Source: a virus
Length of the DNA stretch: 64,000 nucleotides
Reading direction: 5' to 3' (one strand)
IMG/VR virus record: IMGVR_UViG_3300042691_015660
Shown piece after piece: positions 17,475 to 36,564 of this stretch. A program made the translations under genes and the position numbers. Below the pieces are notes generated by a model. It was given only the letters and a program-made list of their open reading frames with translations. It had not been told where the DNA came from and ran no database searches. Numbering within the stretch: the first letter of the stretch is position 1; every line of letters begins with the position of its first letter.

Positions 17475-18149
17475 ATGCATGTCAAACTCGTTTCCTACAG
17501 TCAGCCAACTAGCGACTATACCTCCATGGGAATCACAGATGCACAAGAGCTCATCGCCTTCTGTGCCCGAGTCTCAAACCCAAGTAATCAGTTCAACAAC
17601 GACACCAGTAGCAAGCTCATCCGGTACCTCGTACGACACAAACACTGGAGTCCACTCGAGATGGTTTCAGCTTGCTTGGAAATTACGACGACACGAGATA
17701 TTGCTAGGCAAATCTTACGTCACAGAAGTTTCAGTTTCCAGGAGTTCAGTCAAAGATATGCAGACCCTACAAAAGATCTTAACTTCGTTAGACGAGAAGC
17801 AAGACTCCAAGACACAACAAATAGACAAAACAGTATAGAAACTGACGATCAAGATTTACAAAAAAGTTGGGAAAGATGGCAGAATAATGTAATTACTGAA
17901 TCGCGTATGGCCTATAATTGGGCCATAGAAAACGGTATTGCTAAAGAACAAGCTCGTGCTGTATTGCCTGAAGGGTTAATTGAAAGTCGATTATACATGA
18001 ACGGTACATTACGTAGTTGGGTTCACTTCATCGAACTACGATGTGCTAATGGCACACAAAAAGAACATCAAGAAGTAGCAGTAGCTTGTGCCAAAGTTAT
18101 CGCTGATGTATTTCCACTTATCGAAACTATGAATCAAACTACTTCCTAA
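17475..18149 (+). CDS. thyX: Flavin-dependent thymidylate synthase
   Basis: HWSPLE, RHRSFSFQEFSQRY (RHRx7SxR), EQARAVLP. Confidence 0.95.
   Translation: MHVKLVSYSQPTSDYTSMGITDAQELIAFCARVSNPSNQFNNDTSSKLIRYLVRHKHWSPLEMVSACLEITTTRDIARQILRHRSFSFQEFSQRYADPTKDLNFVRREARLQDTTNRQNSIETDDQDLQKSWERWQNNVITESRMAYNWAIENGIAKEQARAVLPEGLIESRLYMNGTLRSWVHFIELRCANGTQKEHQEVAVACAKVIADVFPLIETMNQTTS
17479..17838 (+). CDS. Candidate overprinted ORF in the +1 frame of thyX (Ser/Thr-rich, 119 aa)
   Basis: Open from ATG 17479 to TAG 17838; thyX codons over this span avoid those that would create +1 stops. Confidence 0.35.
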   Translation: MSNSFPTVSQLATIPPWESQMHKSSSPSVPESQTQVISSTTTPVASSSGTSYDTNTGVHSRWFQLAWKLRRHEILLGKSYVTEVSVSRSSVKDMQTLQKILTSLDEKQDSKTQQIDKTV

Positions 18150-19308
18150 AAGTTTTATCTCCTGGCCACAAAGGTAATTCTGTATTAGGAGCTCTTTTCG
18201 GAATTTTACTATCGGCACTACTTACACAACTAGGACTAATACAGGGTTTTGGATTATCAAATAATCTAAACCCTGTTTCTATATTCCCTAAAGGTACATC
18301 ATAACAACTATAACTTCGTTTTATACTACCGTCTGGTTCTCTAATAATAATACTACGATACCCGCTAGAACATTCCCATCCTTCAAATTTATTAAAATTA
18401 AAAGCATTAAATCTTTCAGCTTGATCCATATACCAAACTTTATTACTGCTATCAATAAATTCTACTTGAAAATGTTGAGGAATAGTAGAATTCTCATCTT
18501 GATATATTGGATCAGGTGTTGTAAAAAACTTAGGTTTTGGTCTTTTTACTATATTAAAAATCTGTGCTCTGTTTTCCGTAAACGCTCTTTGAGGCATTCC
18601 ATTATGAAGTTTTTCTAACATAGACGGAGTATATCCGTCTACAACAAAACTAGCAGTAGGATCGCTTTGAGGTTTAAGTGTAACATTAATACCTTGTTCA
18701 TGAAAGAATAAAGCATTATCATAATCTTTATCGAACCACTCTGGAACCATAACCATATTAATAGTTACTTGTACATCATACACTTGGCATAATTTTAATT
18801 TGTCCGCAAACTCCTGCATTTTTTCTTTAGTGTTTACATGCTCTGTATGAAGGCTGGCTGTAATACTAGCTCTATGAAATTTATTAACATTGGGACAGTA
18901 ATTAGTTTCAAACCATGCCATAGGCCTACTCATATTACTAGTCATATGAACACTAGTATAATTCGTGTTCTCTACATCATCATTAAGGTATTTCAGTATA
19001 TCTATATAGCCTGGATGAAACGTAGGCTCTCCACCACTTAGACTAAAATGAAAACTATTAAAGTTTCTTTCTCTCGCTTGACGTTTAATTTCATCAATCG
19101 TTTTCAAACATAACTCTGTTGGTCTGTGGTCTTTACTATCGCTACGAGCATATGGCCAACAATAACTACACCGATAGTTACAATATCTTCCTAATAACCA
19201 GCTTACAGTAAATATATCTTTATACAACATAGTTCGTTGTCCTACTCGAACAATGTCCTGATAAGGTATCTTAGTAAAATCGTAACTACTTTTTTTTAAA
19301 TCACTCAT
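18139..19308 (-). CDS. Radical SAM enzyme (subtype A, C-terminal Cys-rich auxiliary region)
   Basis: CNYRCSYC, SGGEPT, C-terminal GWECSSG..SC..PCISPSC. Confidence 0.88.
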   Translation of the reverse strand: MSDLKKSSYDFTKIPYQDIVRVGQRTMLYKDIFTVSWLLGRYCNYRCSYCWPYARSDSKDHRPTELCLKTIDEIKRQARERNFNSFHFSLSGGEPTFHPGYIDILKYLNDDVENTNYTSVHMTSNMSRPMAWFETNYCPNVNKFHRASITASLHTEHVNTKEKMQEFADKLKLCQVYDVQVTINMVMVPEWFDKDYDNALFFHEQGINVTLKPQSDPTASFVVDGYTPSMLEKLHNGMPQRAFTENRAQIFNIVKRPKPKFFTTPDPIYQDENSTIPQHFQVEFIDSSNKVWYMDQAERFNAFNFNKFEGWECSSGYRSIIIREPDGSIKRSYSCYDVPLGNIETGFRLFDNPKPCISPSCVSSADSKIPKRAPNTELPLWPGDKTFRK

Positions 19309-20419
19309 AAAACTCTTTTAGCATATCGTACAATTCTGGATTAGCATCTTTCCAATGCTCGTTTCTAATGTCATTTAACTTATCATCCATTACTTTAAAT
19401 TTAGCAAAATTTCCTGGTCTAACTAAATGATCATATACTATTCCCCTAAATTCTATTATTTCTTGATGAGACGATTCATTGATCCTTTTCATAAATTTGT
19501 CTTTAATTTCTACTGGCAGATTACAAGGTCTCATCCAATCAGGACCGTCAACCATAACAAACTGAAAATGAGTATTGGGATATTTGTCTTTTACATGTTC
19601 CAATAAGTATTCTATTTGATTGATATTATAGATACTTACCACTGAATGAACCATTACCATTTCAAAATTATTAGAATACCATCGTAAATTTTTATCTACT
19701 TCTTCCCAAACACTTCCTTTACGTAAAAAGTCATTTAACTTGCCGTAAGCATCGATACTACAAGCAATTTTAACATGTTTACATCTACGAAATAATTTCA
19801 TTAGTTCAGCAGAAGGTTTCACAGTTACATTAGTAGCTAAAAATATTGATAAATTAGATAAATTACATCTGTTTAATATTTGTATAAATTTTTCTTGTTC
19901 TAGTAAAGGCTCTCCACCAATGAGTTTGATAAAAGTTAGTTTACTAACATCAATATTTTTCAAAGGATCTAAATTTTTAACAATGCCTTTGTTAATAGGA
20001 ATCCCTAATATCTTAGCATCTGGATACCAATTAGTGCTTAGTTCAGGACCACACATTCTACATTTATTATTACATACATTACTGAGTGCTAGATCTATAT
20101 AACCTAATTGTGGGTTCTCTGGTATTATAAAAGGAGATCCTGCTAATCTCTCAAAATTTTCTAAACTGTCTATCCTCATACTTTTTCCAGAATTCTTTTC
20201 ATCTAGATAGCACTGTTGACATCCGGAAACAGGTTGACCATCTGTAATCTGATTCCTTATCTGTTTTAAAAATGGATGATTCATTACATCAGTATGATCT
20301 AAATTGAATTCCTCTGGAGTTTCTTCATGTCTGAAATAGCAGCAAGGATACAATCTGCCATCTGGCCGAATGGCAACATGATGCCAAGGTAACGGACATA
20401 ATACATTTTCTTTATTCAT
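19301..20419 (-). CDS. Radical SAM enzyme with N-terminal twitch/SPASM-like domain (subtype B)
   Basis: CPLPW..PCC..CQQC, then CNNKCRMC, GGEP. Confidence 0.88.
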   Translation of the reverse strand: MNKENVLCPLPWHHVAIRPDGRLYPCCYFRHEETPEEFNLDHTDVMNHPFLKQIRNQITDGQPVSGCQQCYLDEKNSGKSMRIDSLENFERLAGSPFIIPENPQLGYIDLALSNVCNNKCRMCGPELSTNWYPDAKILGIPINKGIVKNLDPLKNIDVSKLTFIKLIGGEPLLEQEKFIQILNRCNLSNLSIFLATNVTVKPSAELMKLFRRCKHVKIACSIDAYGKLNDFLRKGSVWEEVDKNLRWYSNNFEMVMVHSVVSIYNINQIEYLLEHVKDKYPNTHFQFVMVDGPDWMRPCNLPVEIKDKFMKRINESSHQEIIEFRGIVYDHLVRPGNFAKFKVMDDKLNDIRNEHWKDANPELYDMLKEFYE

Positions 20420-20975
20420 TATACCACCTTGTATTTTGTACTGGATCTATACTAATTTCGTTTATATTAAGTTCTTTAGGCTGATCGATTATCCATTTAA
20501 TATACTGTGCAGCCTTATCTATATTCATTGTACGTCTTTCAGGATGTTTGTTTTGATTATTGCTTAAAGTACCAAAACTAATATAACTAACTTTAGGGCC
20601 TTTATCCCAAACTCCTGCTATACCTAAAGTATTAGAATAGTCTCGTAGTGCTTTCTTTTCAGCATTGTACAACCAGGCTTTACCGTTCTTGACTCTATCT
20701 GTTGTACTGCCTACATTTATGATATGAATATTATGATTAGCAGTCATACACACTTTATAAATTGTTTCTAATAACACAGTTTGATTAAACTTCCATAGTG
20801 CAGCACAATTAATAAAAATATCATATTCTAATATAAGGTCTGCTAATCTATTTTGACCTAAATGTGATGTTAAATCAAACCCGGTAGTCCGACTTGCAAA
20901 CAAAGCATCTGGATAACATTTATATAGTTCAGCAGCAAGTCCTGCGTTTTTATTTCCGGTAATAATTATTTTCAC
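20412..20975 (-). CDS. Short-chain dehydrogenase/reductase, compact form
   Basis: IIITG..AGLA, INCA, INVGS, YNAEK (YxxxK); GTG at 20975 overlaps upstream TGA. Confidence 0.75.
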   Translation of the reverse strand: MKIIITGNKNAGLAAELYKCYPDALFASRTTGFDLTSHLGQNRLADLILEYDIFINCAALWKFNQTVLLETIYKVCMTANHNIHIINVGSTTDRVKNGKAWLYNAEKKALRDYSNTLGIAGVWDKGPKVSYISFGTLSNNQNKHPERRTMNIDKAAQYIKWIIDQPKELNINEISIDPVQNTRWYNE

Positions 20976-22213
20976 GAATCCAACCATTCTACTAAATCAG
21001 GATCAAGATAATCTCTATAAGATTGATTTCTAGACTTATCAAATAATTCTGTTTCTGCTTTTATTAATGACTTGTTTTCTTTATTGTATAAAATAGCATT
21101 ATCTACCATCTTCAACAAGTTTATGACAGAGTGTTCTTCAGAACCGTCTCTGTAAATATATTTTTCTATCCTCTGTCTAGCAGTCTTTAATAATTTTACA
21201 GGCAAATGCTTAATAGCAATTCCCCTATCCATGTCATAAATTTCACCGTATTGTACTCCTACTTCAGTGGGCAATTCTCTTACCCAACGTATATATTTGT
21301 CGGTGTCTAAAAGATTGTGAGCACTAATTATCTTAGCAAATGGCACAATTCTATTATAATTTTTAACTTCTTTGAAATATAAATTTATACTAGTTTCTAA
21401 TTGTTCAAAAGTAGCAGGATATCTTATGTATTCGTAGGTCTTTCCCATTCCATCAATACTGAACACATGATCATTTTTTTTAAATTCATTTAAAATTTTA
21501 ATAATTTTATCATCAAACAAAGTAGCATTTGTATGAAAATGTAATATTGTATTTTTAGCATTGCCTGTTTCAATATAACGTTCCATTAATTTTATCATTT
21601 TTTTATCATAAAAAGGTTCGCCACCACTAGCCTTTACATACTTTATTTTATCAGTATTTTCTAATAACCATTTCCATTGAGGAGATTCAACGGCCCTTAC
21701 AGCCTGTTCGATGATTCCCCATCTTTTAGTAATTTTATGCACTTCTGGTAATAAACCATTTTTTTCAAAGTAACGATGATCGATCATAAGCTCATTACTA
21801 GATGTAGGAGAACACATTCTACATCGAAGATTGCAAACGTTGGAAAAAGTCAAATCTACAATCGATAGTCCATCCTCTTTTTCATATAATTCCGCTTCAT
21901 TACTCCATTGTCTAAAAGATTTAAGACCTCTATCCTCTTGATGCCAACAAGTTTCGCAAGCAGGATCTCTTATATTATTAGATAAGTTATGCCTTAACTC
22001 TTGCATTCTTGGATGATCATACATCTCTTGCGGTGTTAGTTTCCAAACTTCTTTAATCTTTAACACATCAGGATCTCTGTTCGTTGTTATAGGATTGGGC
22101 ATCATACAACAAGGCCAAAAAGTTTCTAATTTATCTCCAGAAAACATTTTCATAGCTATTTCTCTGAAAGGTTGTATACAGTATGTAGTTGATTTTTTTG
22201 ACTCGGCACTCAT
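20972..22213 (-). CDS. Radical SAM enzyme, N-terminal twitch (subtype B)
   Basis: CIQPF..PCC..CETC; CNLRCRMC; SGGEP. Confidence 0.88.
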   Translation of the reverse strand: MSAESKKSTTYCIQPFREIAMKMFSGDKLETFWPCCMMPNPITTNRDPDVLKIKEVWKLTPQEMYDHPRMQELRHNLSNNIRDPACETCWHQEDRGLKSFRQWSNEAELYEKEDGLSIVDLTFSNVCNLRCRMCSPTSSNELMIDHRYFEKNGLLPEVHKITKRWGIIEQAVRAVESPQWKWLLENTDKIKYVKASGGEPFYDKKMIKLMERYIETGNAKNTILHFHTNATLFDDKIIKILNEFKKNDHVFSIDGMGKTYEYIRYPATFEQLETSINLYFKEVKNYNRIVPFAKIISAHNLLDTDKYIRWVRELPTEVGVQYGEIYDMDRGIAIKHLPVKLLKTARQRIEKYIYRDGSEEHSVINLLKMVDNAILYNKENKSLIKAETELFDKSRNQSYRDYLDPDLVEWLDS

Positions 22214-23418
22214 ATAATTTCCCTTGTATCTGTGTTATCAAGAACGTCGATGTTAAAGTGCGTTCGAATTACATTAATATAATTTTCCTTAAACTTGCTC
22301 TTGGGCGCACATAGTCCGCAACCACATGTGTGCTTAGGACAAACTATAGTAGGCATAGTATTGTTTTTTAAATTGTTTTCTAAATTTTCAAGAATTTTAT
22401 CACTTTCACTTAATTTTCCAATAGGTCCTCGTATTTGCCCAAACTTTGCTTGACATGTTTGATGATGAAAAACACTGTCTGTTTGCTGCTCTATGTGCAT
22501 GAAGAACCAGTTAACACTGCAATACCATCCTTTGAATTCCCTTAGATCCACAAACTTACTCTTTCGACTTTCACCTTGATTACTTAAACACATTGTACGA
22601 CTTCCGCAGCATGGGCGGCCAATCGTTAATCCTAATTTCTTTTGCGGAGTAGTGCTATCTTGTGTAGCAGCACTAATTCCAAAATCTGTGTTTTGTCTAA
22701 TTTCTTCTGAGCTAGGGTTATTAACTTTTTCTGTATTAGTCTTCCAGTAGTCTTTCATCCATACTAATTGCTTTTCCGTATATTGATGAGCAAAGTTACT
22801 ACGACTATCTGGCTCTTCTCCTATAACACGTGGTACATACTTGATACCTTTACTGTCGAAATAAGCACAAAGGTCCTGACACTCTTCGAAATAACCGGCG
22901 TGAAACATCACGTTAATACTTATAGTACAATTTCTTTCTGTACCATATTTACTAAATTGTTCGATACGTTCGACTACCTGTTTTTTTAATTTTTCATCTG
23001 CTTCAGTATGATAACTGATTGTAATATGATCCATATGCTCCATTACAGCGTCAGCCATTTTAGCACTCATAGCACCATTACTTGTTAAAGCAAATCCGGC
23101 TCGCCACTTACCCTGATACTTTTCTTGATACTGTTCTTTTAGATATTTTATAAATGGAATAAAATTAGGATTAACAGTAGGTTCGCCACCAGTAAAACTA
23201 ATGCTAGTTTCTTTAAAATACCTGTGATTCATATACAAATCAATATACTTGTATAAAAAATCAACATTGCCTTTCAAAGTTTCTAATGTAGCATGAGGAC
23301 TAAAATTATCATGTCTATGACTTGGACAATAACTACAATCGTAATTGCATCTACGTCCTACGTCCCATGTAACTTGAAATACATTGCCGTCTAATAAATC
23401 TACTGTATCAAAACTCAT
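22210..23418 (-). CDS. Radical SAM enzyme (subtype A)
   Basis: CNYDCSYC, TGGEPT, C-terminal PCCG..GWYC..TC..CPKHTCGCGLC. Confidence 0.88.
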   Translation of the reverse strand: MSFDTVDLLDGNVFQVTWDVGRRCNYDCSYCPSHRHDNFSPHATLETLKGNVDFLYKYIDLYMNHRYFKETSISFTGGEPTVNPNFIPFIKYLKEQYQEKYQGKWRAGFALTSNGAMSAKMADAVMEHMDHITISYHTEADEKLKKQVVERIEQFSKYGTERNCTISINVMFHAGYFEECQDLCAYFDSKGIKYVPRVIGEEPDSRSNFAHQYTEKQLVWMKDYWKTNTEKVNNPSSEEIRQNTDFGISAATQDSTTPQKKLGLTIGRPCCGSRTMCLSNQGESRKSKFVDLREFKGWYCSVNWFFMHIEQQTDSVFHHQTCQAKFGQIRGPIGKLSESDKILENLENNLKNNTMPTIVCPKHTCGCGLCAPKSKFKENYINVIRTHFNIDVLDNTDTREII

Positions 23419-24305
23419 AGTTGCTTATCACTCAAATAATAAATCTTGTTTTCAATTGACCAATTTCTTTCAGCACAATGAAAACAATTATTTAATTCAT
23501 TGCACCCTCCTTTAGTTACTGGGCAACTTTCGGTCATATCAAAAAGTTCTTCTAAATCAAAATTAGAATATTGGGCAGTAACCCAACTTTTTTCTACACG
23601 CTCAAAAGGTAATATTGATGTTAAATTTTTAAAAAACTCATTTTTAAAAATGCTAGGACTAAAATTAAATAATCTTTCTGTTGCTTGCCTAAATTTAGGA
23701 GAATTTGGTATGTCTTTTGCGTAAGCTGGATTAGTGGTCGTTCCATCGTATATCGCATTTAGCAAATATTTTTTGCTTACCCAGTTATTAAAATATCTAA
23801 AATATAAAACATCAGAGGTAGCATTGACATCAATCAAATTTTGAAATTCTCTTTTACTTTTATTATCTAGAATAGTTAAATTTTTAATTGGAGTATTTTC
23901 AAAAGGTGTGGGTATAAATCCCCACACTACTGGTTGTATGATTGAAGGAAACAAATTACTTAGATAAGCATGAATTTTTTCTTTAACTACTTCACTAAAA
24001 TCTGATGTATCAGAAAATCTTATCACGGACAACGGAACTAACTTAGTATCGCATTTTAAATGTTCTATAATTTTTGCTAACATATACATTAACATTGTAC
24101 TATCAGCACCTCCACTAAAATTGATACCTACATTTTTAAAATTAGTATTAAAATGAATTGGTAAACCGTTAACTGTTACATAATCTAAAAATCTACCTTC
24201 GACTATATTTTTGTCTAGCCATGCTTGTAGAAATCTAAAATAATGATCATGTGGAATATTATTTAAGTTTACTCTTTCAAATCCTATGGTACCTAAACTA
24301 GGCAT
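23415..24305 (-). CDS. QueC-like PP-loop ATPase (AANH superfamily)
   Basis: SGGADS PP-loop; C-terminal TESC..C..CFHCAER. Confidence 0.7.
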   Translation of the reverse strand: MPSLGTIGFERVNLNNIPHDHYFRFLQAWLDKNIVEGRFLDYVTVNGLPIHFNTNFKNVGINFSGGADSTMLMYMLAKIIEHLKCDTKLVPLSVIRFSDTSDFSEVVKEKIHAYLSNLFPSIIQPVVWGFIPTPFENTPIKNLTILDNKSKREFQNLIDVNATSDVLYFRYFNNWVSKKYLLNAIYDGTTTNPAYAKDIPNSPKFRQATERLFNFSPSIFKNEFFKNLTSILPFERVEKSWVTAQYSNFDLEELFDMTESCPVTKGGCNELNNCFHCAERNWSIENKIYYLSDKQL

Positions 24306-25608: not shown

Positions 25609-26458
25609 CTTTTATTTCCTCCACTACTTTTTCAACTACGCTTTCTGCCCACTCTCTTTCTTTACACCACCAGCAATGCCCACATTTAGGTAAAATTTCA
25701 ACTGTGTGATCTATCGAATCGTATACTTCTAAACTCGGAACTACTTCTTTAATTTTAGGATCATTAATATCTCCTTCACAGCTACGTGTCATATTGTATA
25801 AATCTAATTTTTCAAATAAATGATATTGTGCTAAAATATAAGACTTATCTACAAATCTAAATGGGTGACAAATAGTATAGCCTTCTTTTTGCATTATTAA
25901 ATCTTTTAACACACCTTCACTAGCAGGTTTTTCTCTGTTTTTCATACCACCTGTCCAATTACTACCTTCTGGGTTGGCACTAGTAGCATTGTAGACTACA
26001 TCAAGTTTTTCTTTGTGTATAATATAATTGTTAAAACTACCAACACAGATTTGATCACCGCTCCTAGGACGACCATCTTCGTCTTGTGTAATCGGACCAA
26101 GAACTCCCCATTCTAGTTCAGGAGGAATAAAATTAGTATGCCTTACAAAATGAATGCTAGGGTAATAATCTTTAACAAATTTATCAAACACATCAAGTGC
26201 TATAGGACCTTGCCATGGCCTAGTATTATAACATCGAACATGACTAATAACATGTATCATACATCTTGATTTATTTCTTGTAATAATATTACATAATAGT
26301 GTAAGTAGGCAGCTACTATCAGCTCCGCCACTAAGATTTATTCCTATTTTCCTCCATGAAGGATTGAAAGGAATATCCAGTCCATTGAATCTAAAAAGTT
26401 GTATTCCGCTCTCGGAATCTAACTGTTCATAGATAGCATTATTATCCTTAAAATTCAT
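25601..26458 (-). CDS. QueC-like PP-loop ATPase (AANH superfamily)
   Basis: SGGADS; HPF..K; TRSC...CGHCWWCKER Zn-site motif. Confidence 0.72.
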   Translation of the reverse strand: MNFKDNNAIYEQLDSESGIQLFRFNGLDIPFNPSWRKIGINLSGGADSSCLLTLLCNIITRNKSRCMIHVISHVRCYNTRPWQGPIALDVFDKFVKDYYPSIHFVRHTNFIPPELEWGVLGPITQDEDGRPRSGDQICVGSFNNYIIHKEKLDVVYNATSANPEGSNWTGGMKNREKPASEGVLKDLIMQKEGYTICHPFRFVDKSYILAQYHLFEKLDLYNMTRSCEGDINDPKIKEVVPSLEVYDSIDHTVEILPKCGHCWWCKEREWAESVVEKVVEEIKDV

Positions 26459-29191: not shown

Positions 29192-30245
29192 AATTTATTT
29201 CGTTTTGATATGCTTTATTATAAGCACAAGTTCTGATACATCTTATAAAATGTTTGGCGTGAATAGGGTTCCAACTTTCGGATAATATATGATCAAACCA
29301 AGGATGTGCCAATACTTCATCAATAGAATGCTCACGTAAACTATTCCAACCTTCTGTATATTCACCTAATTTTTCTGCAATACTTTCTTTATTTTTAAAC
29401 ATACTATCCCATAAAAAACAACAAGGCCACATAGTTTGATTACTAGCTATAAAAATTTCACCTTCGTGGACAAGTTTGCATGCTATTGAATTTAAAATTT
29501 CTTGCTGTTTATCAACTATTGGAATCATAAACATTCCTTTATTGTATGTCGAAATAAACTTGTCTAAATCTTTAACTAGATCTTTTTTACTATGTTCTTT
29601 AGTACCTGTCGTGGTAATTACTACTTGCTCTTTTGTTTTATCTTTCTTTCTAATTTCTGCTATCCAATTATGATAACTATTTCTCATACCTGTTCTTGTA
29701 GCGAATTTAAAACCTAATTGATTAGCGTGATTCTGTGCTATTGTTAATTCGTGCTCGTTATGATCAAATACTATGTAAATCCACGTAGCCTGTCCGTGTG
29801 CCTCAGAATAAGCTATCATATTTTTTTCTATAACGCTAAAAAGTGTATTAACTCTATAGATATGATTAGTTTCCTTATGTCCATCAACACAAAAATTAAC
29901 ATCAACTAAATTAGTTTTCTTACTTAATTCTCCGAGTTTACCCCACCAGCTCGCTGAATTCAATCCGCCATTTGTACTAATTTGACAGTATCCATTATTA
30001 GTAACCAGATAGTCTATCATGTCATAGCATTCTTTATTAGCAATAGGATCGCCTAACACACCACAAAATTTAAATTCTTTACCTTGTATATGTCTTGTAG
30101 TAGGAAACATTCTTTTTAAATCGTCTAGCCCAAAACTGTTTATTTCTAAAATATCAGGATTTTGTGTTCGTGCGCATCCAGGACAAGCAGCATTACAATT
30201 GCTAGTAATTTCTAATTCTACTTTTTTAATATTATCTATATTCAT
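29178..30245 (-). CDS. Radical SAM enzyme with C-terminal twitch/SPASM (subtype C)
   Basis: CNAACPGC, CGVLGDP, C-terminal CK..PCC..CIRTC. Confidence 0.88.
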   Translation of the reverse strand: MNIDNIKKVELEITSNCNAACPGCARTQNPDILEINSFGLDDLKRMFPTTRHIQGKEFKFCGVLGDPIANKECYDMIDYLVTNNGYCQISTNGGLNSASWWGKLGELSKKTNLVDVNFCVDGHKETNHIYRVNTLFSVIEKNMIAYSEAHGQATWIYIVFDHNEHELTIAQNHANQLGFKFATRTGMRNSYHNWIAEIRKKDKTKEQVVITTTGTKEHSKKDLVKDLDKFISTYNKGMFMIPIVDKQQEILNSIACKLVHEGEIFIASNQTMWPCCFLWDSMFKNKESIAEKLGEYTEGWNSLREHSIDEVLAHPWFDHILSESWNPIHAKHFIRCIRTCAYNKAYQNEINYVNK

Positions 30246-31414
30246 TTAAATTGATCACTAAAGGCATCATATTTAGCACCACATGTTTTAGCACAAATAG
30301 CTAATTTTCCGTCGGCACAACTTGGCTGATTCCAACTATTAGGAATTACTTCTGTAAAATATTTGCCGTTTATAATATCTTCCAATCTGTTCAGTTTAGC
30401 ATTTAAGTTGTTTTTACCTACTTCATTGATTGCTTGCCAGATCTGTCCTCCTAACGGCTTCCAATACCAAACATACATTTGCCCGGCTGTCCAGCAACAA
30501 GGTTGAACTATACCTTCGGCACTAATGTAAACGGACTTTTCCTCTGCTACCTTACACTTTATTTCTACTGAGTCCCAATATTTTTCCATTTCTTTCTTTG
30601 TATCGGGATTAAAACTAAACATTTGCCTACCTTGGATTTCCTCAGCATCTTTAGCAGTACTAGGTAAAAATTTAATTTCTGTAATTGTCTCACTAGCTAT
30701 TTTACTTAATTCTTGTAAGCTGCTATTTCTATATTTAGAACTAGTAGGAGATTGTAATAGAGTAGTAGCTATACCTTTTCGATTAGCTGCTTGATGTATT
30801 TCTTTTGTTGTTCCGCTGGCATTACTAAAAAATCTCGCACTTTTTTTGTACTGAAACTTTTCAAATCCCATTTTCTTACTTAAAGCTTCTGCTTGTTCAA
30901 CTTGATGTTCGTTATGAGCAAACACAATATAATCCCAGCGAGCTCGACCGCCGGCATTAATAAATGCTTGGGCATTCTCCATTATTTTAGGCCATATAGT
31001 ATTTTGTCTATATAGATGATTTGTATCTTCTAATCCGTCTATACTAAAAACTACATAACTATTTTTACCTAATACATTCGCTAATTCTTTCCACCAATCA
31101 GATTTTTTAGCACTACCATTAGTATACATGTTAAGATTCATTTTAGAATTATGTCGTCTAAAATAATCAAATACTTCTAAGGTATCTTTAGCAGCGATAG
31201 GATCTCCATAATTACCACACATGTAAAGACGAGTTAATTGTGCTACAAATTCTGGCTCAAATATTTTTTCACAATCAGATAAACTTAATTCTGTACCAGG
31301 CAATTGCGGGTTGTCTTCTCCGCCATTGATATTTCTCGCACACATAGGACAGGCAGCATTACAATTATCTGTCATTTCTAAATGAACTGTTCTAATTTCT
31401 GAATACTTATACAT
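30242..31414 (-). CDS. Radical SAM enzyme with C-terminal twitch/SPASM (subtype C)
   Basis: CNAACPMC, CGNYGDP, C-terminal CK..PCC..CAKTC. Confidence 0.88.
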   Translation of the reverse strand: MYKYSEIRTVHLEMTDNCNAACPMCARNINGGEDNPQLPGTELSLSDCEKIFEPEFVAQLTRLYMCGNYGDPIAAKDTLEVFDYFRRHNSKMNLNMYTNGSAKKSDWWKELANVLGKNSYVVFSIDGLEDTNHLYRQNTIWPKIMENAQAFINAGGRARWDYIVFAHNEHQVEQAEALSKKMGFEKFQYKKSARFFSNASGTTKEIHQAANRKGIATTLLQSPTSSKYRNSSLQELSKIASETITEIKFLPSTAKDAEEIQGRQMFSFNPDTKKEMEKYWDSVEIKCKVAEEKSVYISAEGIVQPCCWTAGQMYVWYWKPLGGQIWQAINEVGKNNLNAKLNRLEDIINGKYFTEVIPNSWNQPSCADGKLAICAKTCGAKYDAFSDQFK

Positions 31415-31637
31415 TATCTAAAATAATATTAACTGTGACTCCAGGCCCGACACGACTAGGTAAATCACCGTACTGATCAATATACCATCTAATAACAGAT
31501 TTGTACCAATTTTGACTGTTATGATGCGCTTGTTGATTAAATTTATAAATGTTATTATTAGTTGCTTCCATAGTAGCCACAGCTCGAGCACACTCTTTCT
31601 GTAAGGTTCTTAAATCATATTGATCTAAATCTATCAT
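31407..31637 (-). CDS. Small hypothetical protein heading the radical SAM run
   Basis: 76 aa, overlaps both neighbours. Confidence 0.6.
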   Translation of the reverse strand: MIDLDQYDLRTLQKECARAVATMEATNNNIYKFNQQAHHNSQNWYKSVIRWYIDQYGDLPSRVGPGVTVNIILDNV

Positions 31638-32485
31638 GGGTATCCAATTAACATAACTCTTTTATATCCTTTTAATTGTAATTCGCCTTCATAAAGGATT
31701 TCACTCATGGGATATTTCTTTTTCATATGATCTATACTGTGAACACAATTGATGTGTTCTTCTACATCAAATAAGTTGTTACTTTGAATTACTACAATGG
31801 GTTTATTTTCAAACTCTTTGAATCTAATAGAATCATACCATCTTTCATCCATGTGTTCAGCAGATGTATTAACTATAAGATCTGGCATGAAAGTTTCACT
31901 AAAAATTTTCGATTCTACATTCTTAAAGTTTTCGACATTGAGCATATATCCAGATTTATGAATAATAAGATCGCTTATATCAGCACATATAGATTTAACT
32001 CTATAATTTTCAATTAAATGTAAATTAAAAATATCGTCGCTAATTAAACAGGCTGATCGGTCCATGTCTACTACTCTTACTTTTCCAAATTTTAATTCTC
32101 TAAAATATTGAAGAAGTTGTCCGTACCATCCTGCTAATATTAAAACATTTTTATGTTCTGTTCGAATTTTTCTCAATTCCTCTGCTAGCCATACCTTACT
32201 TTGTACTTGACCTCTGCTAAAAGCATCTTGTAAATGTCTAGGATTATGTTCCTCTCTGTAATACTTATGAAAAGCAGTAAAAATATTATTATGAGTAAAT
32301 TTTCTTAACATACTAATAAATTCTACAATATCAGCTTCTTCAGTTAAAGTAATCATTGGATTGTTAGCGTATAACATTTTTAAAATAAAATCTACATAAT
32401 TACTAGATGTTTCGTCGCCTTGAAACTTAAAAAATTCTTGTAGCCCGTGTAACCAAGATATAGCACTTTTATCAACTTCTTCCAT
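31634..32485 (-). CDS. Class I SAM-dependent methyltransferase-like protein
   Basis: VLILAGWYG motif I, VVDMD motif II, IVNTSAEHM. Confidence 0.6.
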   Translation of the reverse strand: MEEVDKSAISWLHGLQEFFKFQGDETSSNYVDFILKMLYANNPMITLTEEADIVEFISMLRKFTHNNIFTAFHKYYREEHNPRHLQDAFSRGQVQSKVWLAEELRKIRTEHKNVLILAGWYGQLLQYFRELKFGKVRVVDMDRSACLISDDIFNLHLIENYRVKSICADISDLIIHKSGYMLNVENFKNVESKIFSETFMPDLIVNTSAEHMDERWYDSIRFKEFENKPIVVIQSNNLFDVEEHINCVHSIDHMKKKYPMSEILYEGELQLKGYKRVMLIGYP

Positions 32486-33158
32486 TATAACTCCTATTAA
32501 ATTGCTCTTTCAACCACGTAAAGTCATTAATTTTTTTTAATTCTTCTAAATTATCTTTATTCTCAATTCCATATTTTTCGCCGTCAATTGCTCCGCGAAT
32601 AGCATATTCCCCAAATGGTCTATCATTACCTATAGTTTTCCAAACAAGTAGACGATTTTCTGTTTCGTCTGTCTTTTGTCTATCTATGACTTTACTAGAT
32701 AATTTACAACACTCTCTAAAAGCACTTCTCCAAGTACTGAATGGTTCTGTATTAAAAGCAGTAATGTTACTAACTTCTGTCATAGGTTTAAAATGTTTAC
32801 TGATACTAGTAGTCATATCTGGTCTAGTAGTATCCATATCTAGTGTAGCTAATCTGGGTAATAATTTTACTCCGCCAAATCCATACTCTAAGTCATTAAT
32901 AGGATTACGACTTCTCCAAACATGTACAAAATTTGTTTCTTTTGTTGTGTAACTAAAATCAAAACTTTCTAAAATTTCAGCATCGGCATCTACTACCCAA
33001 AACATATTAGTAAAACATTTACTAGCTGCGGCAATGTGAGCCCGATGTATACCTGTAATTCCTGATACTCTTTTAGCCCACGGGAATCTATTAGCCAGAT
33101 ATTGCCAATTTTTTTCAGCATTTAATTCATTATAACTTATAAAAACAATATCGTACAT
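32472..33158 (-). CDS. GT-A (GT2-like) glycosyltransferase, paralog 1
   Basis: DIVFISYNE, AHIAAA, WVVDAD (DxD), YGFGGVK, WRSAFRE. Confidence 0.7.
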   Translation of the reverse strand: MYDIVFISYNELNAEKNWQYLANRFPWAKRVSGITGIHRAHIAAASKCFTNMFWVVDADAEILESFDFSYTTKETNFVHVWRSRNPINDLEYGFGGVKLLPRLATLDMDTTRPDMTTSISKHFKPMTEVSNITAFNTEPFSTWRSAFRECCKLSSKVIDRQKTDETENRLLVWKTIGNDRPFGEYAIRGAIDGEKYGIENKDNLEELKKINDFTWLKEQFNRSYNGRS

Positions 33159-34075
33159 TACGAAATCACCATGTTATTTTTCATCCTTGGAGGATTTGTA
33201 TACAGCGTTTTAAACAGAATACTCTGGTTACCATTAAATGGAGCGTCTACATTGATACCTAATTCATGTTCTAGTGTTTCGCCTATACTTATTATTTCGT
33301 ATGGCAATATATCAGTAGATATTTTACTTTCTATTTCCTCCCAGAAAGCATTTAACCGTTTAAAATCTCTAACATTTAGATAATCCCACTCAGAGCAATT
33401 AGTCATATAACATCCTTGTCTAGCTCCATAGATTGCCCAAATGCCATTTTGTACATCCATCCCAACATGCATCCAAATTAATAAACGATGTAAATTTTTC
33501 CAGTGTATTTGTCTATCAAATGATCTATCCTTAGTAGGTTTAGAGCCTTCTAATAAACTCATCTTTACACCTTCGCGAAATCCTGCTCGCCATGCTTGTT
33601 GTGGACTACCGTTATTATAAACATCGCTCATACATTTGTCCATTTGAATATAATTTATATCCCAACAGAAATCGACTTGAGTTTTAGAATTGTCGGATTC
33701 AGCATTTTCATGTGTACGCATGTTTAAAATTAATTCTGTTGGCCAACATTTAATACCGCCATTTCCGTAAATTAATCCATTAATAACATTTCTTGCTCCC
33801 CAACTTATTACACAATTCATATCAGAATCATTGTAAAACTCTACTTCTTGATTAATTAATTCTGGCCTGACAATATTGTCACCGTCAATAATCACTACTC
33901 TTTCAGTTTCTGCTATTCTTGCACAAGCTTTGTGAGCACTATCACTTCCATCTACTCCGTGTACACGTTTAGCCCATGGTATTTTCGTTAACAGATCGGC
34001 GTAATTTTGTTCGGCATTTGGCTCATCATAACTTAGATAAACTATATCGCATTCTGCTACTTTTATTTTAGGCAT
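33158..34075 (-). CDS. GT-A (GT2-like) glycosyltransferase, paralog 2
   Basis: DIVYLSYDE, AHKACA, IIDGD (DxD), YGNGGIK, WRAGFRE. Confidence 0.7.
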   Translation of the reverse strand: MPKIKVAECDIVYLSYDEPNAEQNYADLLTKIPWAKRVHGVDGSDSAHKACARIAETERVVIIDGDNIVRPELINQEVEFYNDSDMNCVISWGARNVINGLIYGNGGIKCWPTELILNMRTHENAESDNSKTQVDFCWDINYIQMDKCMSDVYNNGSPQQAWRAGFREGVKMSLLEGSKPTKDRSFDRQIHWKNLHRLLIWMHVGMDVQNGIWAIYGARQGCYMTNCSEWDYLNVRDFKRLNAFWEEIESKISTDILPYEIISIGETLEHELGINVDAPFNGNQSILFKTLYTNPPRMKNNMVIS

Positions 34076-34571
34076 AATCTATTCCGTAAGAGTCATGTAT
34101 TTTTTTAGTTAACACAATAAAATCTTCGTTGTGTTCTTCTAAATCAACAATAAATGGTATTGAGCTAATTTTTTTAGCAGGAACTTTAATTTCTCGAAAT
34201 AAGAAATTTAAATTATCTTTTTTACAGATGTAAAAACTAAATTCAACTAATTTAGCCTGATCGTCTAGTTTTATATCCCACGAAGATTTTTTCGAATTAT
34301 GAAATATTATTACTTGTTCTTTTCCAGTAGCTTTACTAATTTCATAGAAATCTTTATAAACAGAAATCGATGTTTCCGTTGTTAATTTTATCTGTTTAGT
34401 TCCAGAACCTAAACTTTGAATTTTAAATTTAGTAAAATCTTTTGATCCGTTTAAAAAATCCGATATCTCATTTTCTTCTGCTTCTATAAAATCTCCAGAA
34501 GATCTTTTTTCATTTGTAATAGAAGTTATATTTCCTTCTTCGTCATAATATACAAAAAATTTAAATGCCAC
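34068..34571 (-). CDS. Hypothetical protein
   Basis: 167 aa, overlaps both neighbours. Confidence 0.6.
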   Translation of the reverse strand: MAFKFFVYYDEEGNITSITNEKRSSGDFIEAEENEISDFLNGSKDFTKFKIQSLGSGTKQIKLTTETSISVYKDFYEISKATGKEQVIIFHNSKKSSWDIKLDDQAKLVEFSFYICKKDNLNFLFREIKVPAKKISSIPFIVDLEEHNEDFIVLTKKIHDSYGIDYA

Positions 34572-35394
34572 AACTAACCTCTATTTTCTTTAAAATATTG
34601 TTTGTTAAGAAATTATCTTCTGTATAATGAAATACACCTTGTTGTAAAATGTTGTTTATTCTAAGTTGTAACTTGTCATTAAAATGAACACTCACTGTTG
34701 ATTGCCACGATGCTGGCGGCGGATACCATCCCTGAATAGCCGGTTTCATATGTGTAAAAATTAATGGGTTGGCTTTAGAAAATTCATTTTCAGCATTCAT
34801 AATCATTGTAGCTATAGCAGCACTTACATCCATACTACAAAACTTTTGAGTATTATTTCTTGTATGTTCATTATAAAATAATCTCCAATTTTGAACAATT
34901 ATTTCTAACCATTTATAAAACTCATAAGCTATTCTATCTTTTTTAAAGTAATGTAAACCAAAATAAACATTTGGTAATTTGTTATCCACAAAAGTTTTTC
35001 TATAAACATAATCATACACAGGAACGTTTCTATAAGTGACTACATTATTAGTTAATGCCACACTTTTGTTTTCTAAATAATCCCACCAGTGGTCATTAGA
35101 CGTGAGCAATAACATATCACTGTCATATACTATAGTTTCGTCAAATGGACTTATGTGTATTAATTTCCAACGATTTTCTATTTTCCAATTGCTATGTGCT
35201 GCATCGTCTGCCCACGGCACAGTTTCTATTCTGTCAAAAGCTTTTAAATATTTTAATGGAACAACTTCGTTTGTAATCAAACAAGTTTTATTATATTTGT
35301 TGAATTTTTTAATAGTTAACGCAGCAGCATAGGCTTGTGTAACATAATCTACTGTTGTATTCTGAGCAAAAAACAAATGACCTCTACTATTCAT
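34561..35394 (-). CDS. GT-A (GT8-like) glycosyltransferase, paralog 1
   Basis: SPFDETIVYDSD (DxD), FTHMK, FHY. Confidence 0.65.
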   Translation of the reverse strand: MNSRGHLFFAQNTTVDYVTQAYAAALTIKKFNKYNKTCLITNEVVPLKYLKAFDRIETVPWADDAAHSNWKIENRWKLIHISPFDETIVYDSDMLLLTSNDHWWDYLENKSVALTNNVVTYRNVPVYDYVYRKTFVDNKLPNVYFGLHYFKKDRIAYEFYKWLEIIVQNWRLFYNEHTRNNTQKFCSMDVSAAIATMIMNAENEFSKANPLIFTHMKPAIQGWYPPPASWQSTVSVHFNDKLQLRINNILQQGVFHYTEDNFLTNNILKKIEVSCGI

Positions 35395-36217
35395 AATACG
35401 CCCTTAGTAAACTAAACTTATTCATAACATGAACGTCTAGACCATTAGTTTTTACTCCAGTAAATTCTCCTAATACCTTTTCTTTTTCTACAAGAAAAGT
35501 CATAGATTCTTTGTTTATTTTTAAAAGAATATCTTTATCTAAAGTATAAAACATTTTACCTGGAAAAGTGTCAGAAAAAAGATCGCCATCATTACCGTTT
35601 AACAAATGTATAGCTATACTAAATGCATAATCATTTCTAAATTTTTTATCATTAATTTGATAAATTAATCTATAATACTCCCAATTATCTCTAATATATT
35701 CAATTAAGCTAAAAAATATTTCATTTGATTTCACTTTTGTAAAGTAAAAAACTGTAGCCCAATAGAATGGAATAGAATATTGATTAATATATTCGAACTC
35801 TGCTGTATTTCTCCATCCCGCTAAATCGCAAGATTTTCTAAAACATAAAAAATCTTTCTGTTGATTAAACACATTAAGCAAAAAATCAGAATTAATTACG
35901 TAGTCCACATCCATAACTAAAGTTTGATCATACGGAGTTATCTGATAGGAACTTGCTCTATTTGAATTTTTCCATGTATATCTTTCTGAAAATCCATGAC
36001 CATCGCAAAACTTTTTTGTTTGTCCTGTATTATCTTTTTTTCTAATAATATTATCAAATATGTTTGAATTAAAATTTTTATGTAGATAATCTTCGCTGTC
36101 AGTTATTATTGTAACCGGCAAATTTAAATAATGTTTAATACGTTCGGTTAGCTTTATAGCTAACTTAACATAATTCATTTCTGAATTTAACGCAAAAAGT
36201 AATATACCTTTGCTCAT
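35387..36217 (-). CDS. GT-A (GT8-like) glycosyltransferase, paralog 2
   Basis: TPYDQTLVMDVD (DxD), FRND, VHVMNK. Confidence 0.65.
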   Translation of the reverse strand: MSKGILLFALNSEMNYVKLAIKLTERIKHYLNLPVTIITDSEDYLHKNFNSNIFDNIIRKKDNTGQTKKFCDGHGFSERYTWKNSNRASSYQITPYDQTLVMDVDYVINSDFLLNVFNQQKDFLCFRKSCDLAGWRNTAEFEYINQYSIPFYWATVFYFTKVKSNEIFFSLIEYIRDNWEYYRLIYQINDKKFRNDYAFSIAIHLLNGNDGDLFSDTFPGKMFYTLDKDILLKINKESMTFLVEKEKVLGEFTGVKTNGLDVHVMNKFSLLRAYYE

Positions 36218-36564
36218 AAATCTAATATACTCTTAGTATTTCTATTTTTTTTAAGTAAATCAAACTTAGAAAAGTAAGAATTATTTGCTTGGAAATGTTT
36301 ATCTAATAAGGATTCTAAAAACTTATCAATATCTTCTATTTGTATTGGCATAAAATTAGAATCAATTATTACTAATTTTTTTTCATTTGTTAAATCTTTT
36401 AAGGATTTAATGTACGTGATAGTAGCACTATCTGCTTTAAAAATTCCACCATTTTCGAAATGGAAAAGAGACTGTTCGTATTCTTCTTTTAAAATACGTT
36501 TTTGATTAGCAATGGTTGCCATGAGATTGCTAATTTCAAAGGCTTTTTCAATATTTTGATTCAC
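36214..36564 (-). CDS. Hypothetical protein, first gene of the enzyme array
   Basis: GTG start with GGAG RBS; 116 aa. Confidence 0.6.
   Translation of the reverse strand: MNQNIEKAFEISNLMATIANQKRILKEEYEQSLFHFENGGIFKADSATITYIKSLKDLTNEKKLVIIDSNFMPIQIEDIDKFLESLLDKHFQANNSYFSKFDLLKKNRNTKSILDL

Follow-up and report, generated by a model that had tools for sequence, protein, structure and literature searches.

A twenty-gene enzyme array behind the tail-fibre genes of a jumbo phage as a candidate carbohydrate-tailoring pathway

The 64,000-nucleotide stretch of viral DNA analysed here (IMG/VR record IMGVR_UViG_3300042691_015660, hereafter the window) raises the question of what a phage makes with a long run of radical SAM, transferase-like and PP-loop genes placed behind its tail fibres, and onto what acceptor the product would be transferred. 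The phage is a Rak2/Atu_ph07-like jumbo myovirus of about 350-400 kb. The genes upstream of the array encode tail fibres, with Collar domains at E 1e-17 to 1e-19 and PHROG tail-fibre matches, in agreement with the original prediction that the array lies directly downstream of such genes. The array itself covers positions 18139-36564 of the minus strand, and the ORF list confirms the 20 co-oriented genes first described: 19 ORFs of 116-468 aa and a conserved 76-aa ORF (31407-31637) fill the whole interval. Overlaps are found at every junction, as had been claimed, although they span 1-16 nt and not 1-14 nt, the largest being the 16 nt at 20972/20987. The measured gap between the array start and the preceding fibre-associated gene (36626-37588) is 61 nt, matching the roughly 60 bp first noted, and at the other end the last array gene overlaps by 11 nt the 3' end of the convergently oriented thyX (17475-18149, plus strand; Thy1 E 1e-45).

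Along the direction of transcription, the array consists of an unknown 116-aa protein, two GT8-like proteins, an unknown 167-aa protein, two GT-A proteins, a methyltransferase-like protein and the 76-aa protein, followed by four radical SAM proteins, a PP-loop protein, a radical SAM protein, a second PP-loop protein, two radical SAM proteins, an SDR-like protein and two final radical SAM proteins. The enzyme order given earlier is thus retained, with the addition of the three small proteins (116, 167 and 76 aa) that it left out. A TAAATA late-type motif precedes the fibre genes, none is present in the 61-nt gap before the first array gene (g01), and promoter and terminator scans remained at chance level; a single co-transcribed extension of the tail-fibre operon is the best explanation for the 20 genes.

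Nine array proteins contain a single CxxxCxxC each and all nine match Pfam Radical_SAM, confirming their initial assignment. Eight pass the gathering score, the exception being g09 (29178-30245; 22.6 versus 29.5), a 27% paralogue of g08 (30242-31414). Both g08 and g09 combine the N-terminal CxxxCxxC with a C-terminal C...PCC...CxxxC auxiliary-cluster region, and the closest solved relative of their profile is BlsE (E 3.5e-6). Five others match the N-terminal-twitch family NF033640 (N_Twi_rSAM) over the full length, with scores of 204-418 bits where 170 is the cut-off and with an N-terminal four-Cys module preceding CxxxCxxC in all of them; no tested reaction or substrate for this family was found in the literature searched. 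The highest score corresponds to g10 (27785-29191; 418 bits), the anchor of the conserved core, while g11 (26455-27792), g13 (24298-25608), g16 (20972-22213) and g18 (19301-20419), with 204-377 bits, belong to a variable tailoring block (19301-27792) that also includes the radical SAM gene g15 (22210-23418), a paralogue of g19. The latter (18139-19308; Radical_SAM 51.9 bits) is of a third type, closes the array and shows a mean column identity of 66% in its family alignment. Judging from their sequences, the five N-twitch paralogues are old, distinct orthogroups, each grouping viral and bacterial sequences in a separate clade of the tree (support 98-100).

Both peptide maturases (SkfB, CteB) and sugar-acting enzymes (BlsE, BtrN) are among the best solved relatives of the array twitch enzymes. 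BtrN (2-deoxy-scyllo-inosamine dehydrogenase) and BlsE (cytosylglucuronate decarboxylase) share with them the radical SAM core and a twitch module with one auxiliary [4Fe-4S] cluster; the N-twitch profile has BlsE among its best solved matches (E 3.9e-7), and the BtrN twitch aligns to the N-terminal module (E 0.05). Nonetheless, the twitch is C-terminal in BtrN and BlsE and N-terminal here, and the similarity is at superfamily level only, SkfB and CteB scoring as well. Twitch and SPASM radical SAM enzymes, it should be observed, very often act on peptides, which speaks against a sugar substrate.

The two PP-loop proteins, g12 (25601-26458) and g14 (23415-24305), both within the variable block, carry the SGGADS motif and probably fold most like QueC, as originally proposed: for the g12 model (pLDDT 90) the top matches are QueC structures (3bl5, Z 14.4, rmsd 3.1 over 177 residues; 2pg3, Z 13.6), with Cap9 of type IV CBASS at Z 12.2. 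QueC and Cap9 share the PP-loop SGGxDS with them, and the whole-protein fold, including a C-terminal Cys cluster, best matches QueC, although the top QueC match leads TilS and NcsA by 1.3-2.2 Z units. Neither g12 nor g14 reaches the Pfam QueC score, a cut-off that their relatives from other arrays do reach. Unlike QueC, the array genes are interleaved with radical SAM genes and vary in copy number. For g17 (20412-20987), TGxxxG and YxxxK are visible, but the adh_short match (E 0.068) falls short of the Pfam threshold and the SDR label given to it is weak.

Glycosyltransferase calls are weaker than those for the radical SAM and QueC-like proteins. g05 (33158-34075) and g06 (32472-33158), paralogues at 35% identity with an IDGDN (DxD) motif, had been read as GT2-like; the AlphaFold model of g05 (pLDDT 87) supports a GT-A fold at Z about 10, its N-domain matching B4GALNT1, a Leptospira GT, STIV A197, ThuS/SunS, WrtF and SpsA (Z 10.4-8.4). 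g02 (35387-36217) and g03 (34561-35394) are indeed a paralogous pair (25% identity) with invariant D103-x-D105 and H263, candidates for retaining glycosyltransferases, but their GT8 label is a lead only: the profile matches glycogenin just at E 0.3, no Pfam match was obtained, and the language-model lead comes from the nearest named ESM Atlas clusters (NDP-sugar transferase, Mannosyl_trans3 and Glyco_transf_8, at 0.96-0.97). Similarly, g07 (31634-32485) belongs to a large Rossmann-like family (3467 database clusters at E≤0.001, all of them unnamed and lacking a Pfam match); the methyltransferase label is weak, its sole lead being a match to MJ0882 at E 0.077, and the Pfam threshold is not reached.

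Among the small proteins, g01 (36214-36564) is kept in 23 related loci and g04 (34068-34571) is weakly conserved (14 loci, 29% median identity), family searches giving no match for either of them. The 76-aa protein, called s and of unassigned role, occurs in 63 loci with 63% median identity and 26 invariant columns, and was not found in bacterial loci; since its conservation spans the whole length, its sequence makes a RiPP-type precursor unlikely.

The array is present in at least 110 IMG/VR contigs. Its ends are conserved among relatives and its radical SAM middle varies in presence, the core being formed by g05, g06, g07, g08, g10 and g19. The most conserved gene is g10 (66-96% identity in 80 of the at least 110 viral loci); g08 occurs in 79 of 80 loci, g07 in 72 of 80, g05 and g06 in 65-67 of 80, and g19 shows a median identity of 74% in 60 loci. 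This core also occurs in Bdellovibrionota, at identities of 60-64% for g10, 59-64% for g19, 45-49% for g08 and 40-43% for g05 and g06, together with g07. These genomes hold 10-17 family copies spread over many contigs, and sampling of 151 genomes in this phylum gave 31 positives, versus 0 of 14 controls. The expectation of a glycosyltransferase core fixed beside fibre genes and a changing radical SAM content is therefore borne out for the variable middle but not for the position: in several phages the core begins after divergently oriented or non-structural genes, and in some no fibre gene adjoins it. Neither the GT8-like pair nor a Ser/Thr-rich protein was found in the bacteria with the core, so that the array as a whole is not tied to fibres.

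Gene context in the bacteria points to sugars. Within 15 kb of N-twitch genes in 10 Bdellovibrionota genomes were 12 of 53 DegT_DnrJ_EryC1 genes (2.2 expected, P 3e-6), 7 of 18 NodU/CmcH carbamoyltransferases (0.7 expected, P 1e-5) and 7 of 96 epimerases (3.3 expected), statistics that treat clustered genes as independent and hence overstate significance. Two NodU/CmcH genes lie 0.4 kb from a g10 orthologue, and in three phage loci carbamoyltransferases stand directly upstream of the GT-A gene. Carbohydrate is the best-supported substrate class because of the GT-A fold, the DegT and NodU/CmcH co-location and these phage carbamoyltransferases, and the array is probably a carbohydrate-tailoring pathway. 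The window also codes for UDP-glucose-dehydrogenase-like and GFO/IDH/MocA sugar oxidoreductase genes. In such a pathway g10 and g19 would come early, with a common sugar or nucleotide-sugar as substrate, the remaining radical SAM paralogues would edit sugar carbons by oxidation, epimerisation, deoxygenation or C-C/C-methyl chemistry, g17 would reduce a keto intermediate, g12 and g14 would adenylate a carboxylate, for example of a uronic acid, to give an amide or nitrile, g07 would methylate, and the GT-A and GT8-like enzymes would transfer sugars. The most speculative step would place the finished glycan, in phages, on two Ser/Thr-rich fibre-associated proteins.

These candidate acceptors, here termed T-domain proteins (36626-37588 and 37599-38507, minus strand), are paralogues at 44% identity with 22-26% Ser plus Thr, keep FRPSGSNVSVT-PT at the C-terminus in their family alignment, and have no match in Pfam, PHROG or PDB. 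Sixteen loci have both the GT8-like pair and the T-domain genes and 18 have neither; 3 have the GT8-like pair alone and 0 the T-domain genes alone. Among 50,697 phage records, a g05 homologue was found in a single one and so was a T-domain homologue, in both cases the distant cultured Ralstonia phage RsoM2USA, which holds a small version of the array (ORF350 and ORF348, 43-45% identical to g05 and g06; ORF347 for g07). There, the T-domain is part of ORF355, joined to the N-terminal domain of a fibre; this ORF lies immediately upstream of the enzyme genes and adjoins virion proteins confirmed by mass spectrometry (PMC8504454). This linkage favours the proposal that the transferases glycosylate fibre or baseplate proteins, but the co-occurrence is not independent evidence because the genes are adjacent in syntenic genomes, and it may reflect shared ancestry. 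Thus, of the glycan build-and-tailor system originally envisaged, the conserved operon after the fibres and the carbohydrate class stand, while the acceptor is indicated only by linkage; a virion protein in that role is possible but doubtful. Overall, a soluble cytoplasmic pathway that builds and tailors carbohydrate, encoded as an extension of the fibre operon and directed to the fibre tip or baseplate, is the best explanation, at somewhat less than an even chance.

Alternatively, the enzymes might remodel the host surface, altering LPS O-chain, capsule or another envelope glycan in infection so that superinfecting phages are shut out or progeny does not adsorb to cells that are lysing. A precedent is the host recognition cluster of pelagimyophages and cyanomyophages, a hypervariable region of T4-like aquatic myoviruses that follows a giant structural gene and the tail fibres and contains GT8-type genes and variable radical SAM cassettes; these cassettes receive one sentence, and the glycosyltransferases, at a comparable genome position, are assigned to host O-chain modification (Zaragoza-Solas et al. 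2020, PMC7029224). The claim that no characterised viral pathway has this content is fair for the radical SAM enzymes, with the qualification that radical SAM cassettes and GT8 genes at this position had been mentioned in that study; the window phage is not a pelagimyophage. Arrays of Bdellovibrionota also lie next to sugar-nucleotide loci, with 11 epimerase/dehydratase genes immediately preceding the g10 orthologue in G071, and the neighbours in L084 include SIS-domain, LpxO-family and desaturase genes. On the contrary, transmembrane segments are absent from all 20 array proteins, the array encodes no flippase, polymerase, ligase or polyprenyl-phosphate transferase, and the position after late fibre genes and the strict co-occurrence of GT8-like with T-domain genes fit a virion target better, making this explanation unlikely.

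Still less likely, the array and a FolE, QueE-like and phosphoribosyltransferase block 8-12 kb away might make a free aminoglycoside-like or deazapurine-nucleoside-like compound acting against competitors or defences or in signalling. The twitch and QueC-like enzymes resemble sets of aminoglycoside and nucleoside antibiotic clusters, TobZ/NodU-type carbamoyltransferases and DegT aminotransferases accompany relatives and bacterial arrays, respectively, and the block without DpdA recalls the tubercidin and toyocamycin pathways. However, four transferase-like genes adjoin the gene of a putative acceptor protein, an exporter is lacking, the BtrN/BlsE similarity is generic (E 1e-6 to 0.05), and the complete relative G006 retains FolE without a QueC-like gene, so that the deazapurine block can do without QueC-like enzymes. 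It is improbable that the radical SAM enzymes cross-link, epimerise or edit residues of a virion protein in RiPP-like manner: SPASM/twitch proteins are typical peptide maturases, with SkfB, CteB and anSME among the best solved matches, and Asp/Asn beta-hydroxylase-family genes accompany bacterial arrays, but no Cys-His repeat, RGRR end or polyserine tail appears in ORFs of any frame of the window, no Cys-His-tailed substrate was found, the sole small conserved ORF is unlike a precursor, the 60-77% conservation of g10 and g19 from phage to bacteria is unusual for enzymes tracking a variable peptide, and the co-located DegT and carbamoyltransferase genes suggest a sugar substrate. Finally, decoration of a 5-hydroxymethyl-pyrimidine or 7-deazaguanine base in phage DNA, one of the alternatives first offered, is highly improbable in spite of the nearby thyX, FolE and QueE-like genes and of the radical SAM and PP-loop enzymes of thymidine and deazaguanine hypermodification pathways, as no TGT/DpdA family match occurs in 10 relatives (two at least 92% complete, including a complete 399,796-bp genome), the array runs in the same direction as late structural genes and towards the nucleotide-metabolism block, and bacterial chromosomes hold several copies of its core beside sugar genes.

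Regarding the proposed virion target, virus-encoded glycosylation of virion proteins is reportedly known from A64R of chlorovirus PBCV-1 and from mycobacteriophage capsids and tails, systems that likewise use soluble virus-encoded GT-A enzymes near structural genes, and Foldseek matches g05 to A64R, among others. To our knowledge, none of them includes radical SAM enzymes or QueC-like ligases, and a virion target for the array is a candidate. If it is true, the virion of this phage would carry a decorated fibre tip or baseplate.

The array at 18139-36564 is real, intact, widespread and uncharacterised. It comprises 19 minus-strand open reading frames of 116-468 residues, here named g01 to g19 in the order of transcription, the sole apparent gap between them being occupied by a 76-residue frame (s, 31407-31637) that is conserved over its entire length, and neighbouring genes overlap by 1-16 nt at all 19 junctions of the resulting 20 genes. 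The array starts 61 nt past gene 36626-37588 and, at its other end, overlaps by 11 nt the 3' end of plus-strand thyX (Thy1, E 1e-45). Genes upstream of it encode tail fibres, with Collar domains (E 1e-17 to 1e-19) and many PHROG tail-fibre matches. Thus, the original prediction was correct in its open reading frames, overlaps, CxxxCxxC and SGGADS motifs and upstream fibre genes, and its description of co-oriented overlapping genes stands, with a maximum overlap of 16 nt instead of 14 and with three small proteins without known function (116, 167 and 76 residues) to be added to its gene list. The Collar-domain fibre genes are themselves preceded by an open frame (47898-63998, minus strand) that exceeds 5366 residues and continues past the window end, and the equivalent position in Ralstonia phage RsoM2USA is held by a 2541-residue virion protein.

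The G+C content of the array is 0.28-0.34 (measured over 18001-36000), against 0.36-0.39 in the flanking structural and nucleotide-metabolism genes, and no transmembrane segment was found in any array protein. BLASTP among the array proteins yields six paralogue groups, namely g02/g03, g05/g06, g08/g09, g10+g11+g13+g16+g18, g12/g14 and g15/g19. The profile of the 76-residue protein retrieved nothing usable from the PDB, its matches to designed repeat proteins being compositional.

Nine of the array proteins contain exactly one CxxxCxxC each, and all nine match Pfam Radical_SAM (PF04055), eight of them at 30.2-51.9 bits relative to a gathering cut-off of 29.5 bits; the ninth, g09 (29178-30245), scores 22.6 bits, below the cut-off, and is evidently paralogous to 30242-31414 (E 1e-39). 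Five belong to the N-terminal-twitch family NF033640 (N_Twi_rSAM, cut-off 170 bits), with scores of 418 (g10), 377 (g13), 255 (g18), 237 (g16) and 204 bits (g11) and model coverage extending from about 1-17 to 392-398; in them C12, C30, C93 and C96 are invariant and lie N-terminal to the radical SAM cysteines C149/C153/C156. The remaining four reach 28-53 bits with this model and are non-members, g08/g09 and g15/g19 displaying two further architectures with C-terminal cysteine clusters. Among solved proteins, g08/g09 come closest to BlsE and NifB, and g15/g19 to CteB, anSME and viperin, with scores at superfamily level only; the N-twitch profile likewise matches SkfB, BlsE and CteB, and its N-terminal module matches the twitch domain of BtrN. 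In a FastTree phylogeny of 223 N-twitch representatives, chosen by clustering at 65% identity, the five paralogues fall in separate clades, each containing both viral and bacterial members (support 98-100), indicating that, as far as the tree can tell, they are old and functionally distinct proteins and not recent duplicates.

The SGGADS motif occurs in two array proteins, g12 and g14, at residues 43 and 64. Neither matches Pfam QueC (PF06508) even at E<=10, ATP_bind_3 at 15-16 bits being the only hit, while homologues from a related phage (27.2 bits, C-terminal part) and from a Bdellovibrionales array (23 bits) pass the PF06508 cut-off of 22 bits. Residues S43-S48, C227, C262 and C265 are invariant in 14 homologues, and the AlphaFold model of g12 (pLDDT 90) is closest to QueC over residues 35-285 (3bl5, Z 14.4; 2pg3, Z 13.6), with TilS nearly tied (Z 13.1) and the QueC-like Cap9 at Z 12.2. 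The modelled protein combines a PP-loop SGGxDS, a QueC fold and a C-terminal cysteine (zinc) cluster; the profile of the pair retrieved nothing usable from PDB sequences. As regards action on 7-carboxy-7-deazaguanine in a FolE-QueD-QueE pathway, the window does encode FolE and a QueE-like protein, but several QueC-like copies are found in bacterial arrays and the complete phage relative G006 has FolE and lacks a QueC-like gene. This speaks against g12 and g14 as a missing QueC or as obligate partners of the FolE/QueE block, and both are probably accessory tailoring enzymes.

Regarding the transferases, the AlphaFold model of g05 (pLDDT 87) displays a GT-A domain with an invariant DGD (D64-G-D66), residues 1-155 giving Z values of 10.4 to 8.4 with many GT-A glycosyltransferases and the nucleotidyltransferases IspD and MobA following closely at about Z 9; both the Rossmann-like domain and the DxD of GT-A enzymes are thus present in the model. 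The match to Pfam Glyco_tranf_2_3 (16.8) falls short of the cut-off of 27, and an Atlas search with g05 returned unnamed viral clusters only. In one group of relatives, a domain of the g05/g06 type forms the N-terminus of a 777-residue protein (L035:4075-6405, plus strand) preceded by a NodU/CmcH carbamoyltransferase. The GT8, SDR and methyltransferase labels of g02/g03, g17 and g07 are weak, and these proteins should be read as candidates. The g02/g03 pair has no Pfam GT8 (PF01501) match at E<=10, matches glycogenin weakly over its first 110 residues (E 0.3-0.9), retains an invariant DxD and C-terminal His, and was related to GT8 and Mannosyl_trans3 clusters at 0.96 in an Atlas language-model feature search, taken as a lead only. 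The 191-residue g17 matches adh_short over its YxxxK region at E 0.068 (13 bits, cut-off 26.6), with ITGNKNAG and YNAEK visible where SDRs carry TGxxxGxG and YxxxK. For g07, without matches in Pfam or NCBIfam, the sole hit was a weak one to MJ0882 (E 0.077), and its family contains 3467 database clusters, none of them named. Profile searches of g02, g05, g07 and the T-domain (the Ser/Thr-rich fibre-associated proteins 36626-37588 and 37599-38507) against PDB sequences gave nothing usable.

At the DNA level, neither the array nor 1-18100 matched any of 50,697 phage records. The baseplate-associated protein 44028-44639 shares 45-55% identity with proteins of Rak2/121Q/PBECO4-type and Atu_ph07/Phosso-type jumbo phages, and CheckV estimates for related IMG/VR contigs imply a genome of ~350-400 kb. 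Protein searches with g10 detected at least 110 viral contigs, 80 of which were fetched (66-96% identity) and share a recurring backbone: T-domain genes, g01-g04, g05, g06, g07, s, g08, (g09), g10 ... g19 and convergent thyX. How many radical SAM, PP-loop and SDR genes the middle of the array holds, and of which kinds, varies among relatives. In one paper, which also mentions radical SAM cassettes, GT8 genes at this genome position are attributed to modification of the host O-chain (PMC7029224), and further literature searches found nothing more on such arrays.

The core (the GT-A pair, g07, g08, g10 and g19) is not phage-specific, as judged from its homologues. When one genome per prokaryotic species was scanned, the closest cellular homologues were found in Bdellovibrionota, with identities of 60-64% for g10, 59-64% for g19, 45-49% for g08 and 37-43% for g05/g06, and in those loci relatives of g07, g13, g15, g12 and g17 cluster with the core homologues. 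Mis-binned phage contigs are ruled out as their source, since five such genomes hold 10-17 NF033640 matches each across many contigs, no baseplate homologue was found in them, and the neighbours of their array genes are ordinary bacterial genes; the Bdellovibrionota arrays are genuine bacterial loci. In an even sample of the phylum, 31 of 151 genomes have at least one NF033640 member above the cut-off (0/14 controls). N-twitch homologues were also observed in a DPANN genome (L110, Pacearchaeota MAG, about 10001-12017) and a CPR genome (L121, WWE3 MAG, 7810-9069). Their occurrence there, in Bdellovibrionota and in phages suggests, by presence alone, an enrichment of N-twitch enzymes in organisms that attach to other cells.

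Gene neighbourhoods bear on the class of substrate. Considering families within 15 kb of an N-twitch gene in ten Bdellovibrionota genomes, DegT/DnrJ/EryC1 sugar aminotransferases (12/53 nearby, 2.2 expected; Poisson P 3e-6), NodU/CmcH O-carbamoyltransferases (7/18, in seven genomes, 0.7 expected; P 1e-5) and NAD-dependent epimerase/dehydratases (7/96, 3.3 expected; P 0.05) are associated, the P values overstating significance because genes cluster. This sugar-family signal repeats across many genomes. In two cases the carbamoyltransferase gene is only 0.4 kb away from the g10 orthologue, in the genome G071 the g10 orthologue comes after a 40-kb locus with eleven epimerase/dehydratase genes, and three loci of phages devoid of the GT8/T-domain module have a carbamoyltransferase immediately upstream of the GT-A gene. 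The plus strand of the window itself encodes a UDP-glucose-dehydrogenase-like protein (7544-8341) and GFO/IDH/MocA oxidoreductases, together with ADH_N (within 530-10697). As the associated families act on sugars and nucleotide sugars, a carbohydrate rather than a peptide substrate is favoured. RiPP-like or HXS-like maturation would call for a neighbouring precursor or protein that has either a variable core or a repetitive tail of Cys, His or Ser. When all six frames of the 64-kb window were scanned, Cys-His repeats, RGRR ends and runs of at least 8 Ser (polyserine tails) were all absent, and the sole small conserved frame is conserved at full length.

Asp/Asn beta-hydroxylase genes (LpxO/OlsC-type cupins) were also seen beside bacterial arrays (G149:C1:3545030-3557588; L084:19340-21322; L091:19699-20598). 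This family has only two genes in five genomes, both adjoining an array, and appears in two further array loci, so that a single cluster can encode both enzymes that depend on O2 and enzymes that are sensitive to it.

Concerning the acceptor in phages, the foremost candidate, as originally proposed and on circumstantial support, is a virion protein associated with the fibres. In the 37 viral loci whose sequence extends 3.5 kb or more beyond the GT-A gene on its upstream side, the GT8-like pair and a homologue of the T-domain proteins (36626-38507) occur together in 16 and are both missing from 18; three have the pair alone (probably due to a cut flank) and none has the T-domain alone, although such co-occurrence may reflect inheritance of a single block because the genes are adjacent. 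Against a fibre acceptor, in some phages the core starts after divergent or metabolic genes, and neither T-domain nor GT8-like genes were found in five core-bearing Bdellovibrionota genomes. RsoM2USA, a cultured soil jumbo phage, is the only one of the 50,697 phage records with a g05 homologue, and likewise the only one with a T-domain homologue (MG752970; module loci 215949-223553 and 288923-289783). There, a fibre N-terminal domain is fused to the T-domain (ORF355), followed by a small frame (ORF354), two GT8-like genes (ORF353, ORF352), another small frame (ORF351), a GT-A gene (ORF350), one N-twitch radical SAM gene (ORF349), a second GT-A gene (ORF348) and a g07-like gene (ORF347), all annotated as hypothetical. 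Genes 355-347 adjoin ORF356 and ORF361, whose products were detected in RsoM2USA virions by mass spectrometry (PMC8504454), and ORF417, a further T-domain gene standing on its own, is flanked by two genes that encode very large proteins.

Late-type TAAATA precedes the fibre gene starts at 44639 and 39990 by 26-28 nt and is absent from the 61-nt gap before g01, and generic promoter (sigma-70) and terminator scans were at chance level (96 sites versus 101.7 expected); late read-through from a fibre promoter into the array is therefore inference only. The T4 late-promoter octamer TATAAATA is absent from both strands of the window (14.9 +/- 4.6 in dinucleotide-preserving shuffles), the shorter TAAATA occurring 21 times on the minus and 28 times on the plus strand, two fibre genes among those it precedes.

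A small-molecule product of the array is kept as a rival to a fibre-bound glycan. The window also encodes, on the plus strand, a phosphoribosyltransferase (6021-6623), FolE (8371-9135, E 2e-39) and a QueE-like radical SAM protein (9849-10697), a set that, lacking DpdA, is reminiscent of deazapurine nucleoside pathways. The gene content of the 530-10697 block is suggestive of a deazapurine nucleotide route, from 7-carboxy-7-deazaguanine and PRPP, rather than of base exchange into DNA. DNA modification driven by the array is unlikely, since the transglycosylase of 7-deazaguanine DNA modification, TGT/DpdA (PF01702, E<=0.01), was found in none of 10 related phage records, including G006 (100% complete, 399,796 bp) and another relative, G007 (92%), by a model that recovered 14/14 positive controls and that a highly divergent DpdA might evade.

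Altogether, radical tailoring of an unusual carbohydrate is the best-supported function for the array, and a two-layer picture fits the data best. A portable core would make and tailor the sugar, and a phage-specific module (T-domain proteins, g01, the GT8-like pair and g04) may provide the acceptor and the first transfers. A wider proposal, tentative when its parts are taken jointly, is that a toolkit of the GT-A pair, g07, three architectural types of radical SAM enzyme and QueC-like ligases is mobile among cell-attaching organisms, being shared by jumbo phages, predatory Bdellovibrionota and possibly CPR/DPANN episymbionts; that in phages a heavily radical-tailored glycan is placed on a fibre-tip protein, as a new post-translational decoration of the virion that would tune adsorption or shield the fibre; and that the N-terminal-twitch enzymes catalyse sugar chemistry so far undescribed. 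Compared with the gene sets by which phages are known to modify glycans, two things are new in this array, its radical SAM and QueC-like genes and the sharing of its core with predatory bacteria. RsoM2USA, culturable and with a minimal set of one N-twitch, two GT-A, two GT8-like and one g07-like gene plus a fibre-fused T-domain, makes the proposal testable at the bench. If true, phages would complete their own particles by means of carbohydrate pathways that resemble those of natural products and may comprise up to a dozen radical SAM enzymes, NF033640, a large family present 10-17 times in the genomes of some predatory bacteria, would gain its first biological context, and host recognition by abundant aquatic jumbo phages would have an added layer.
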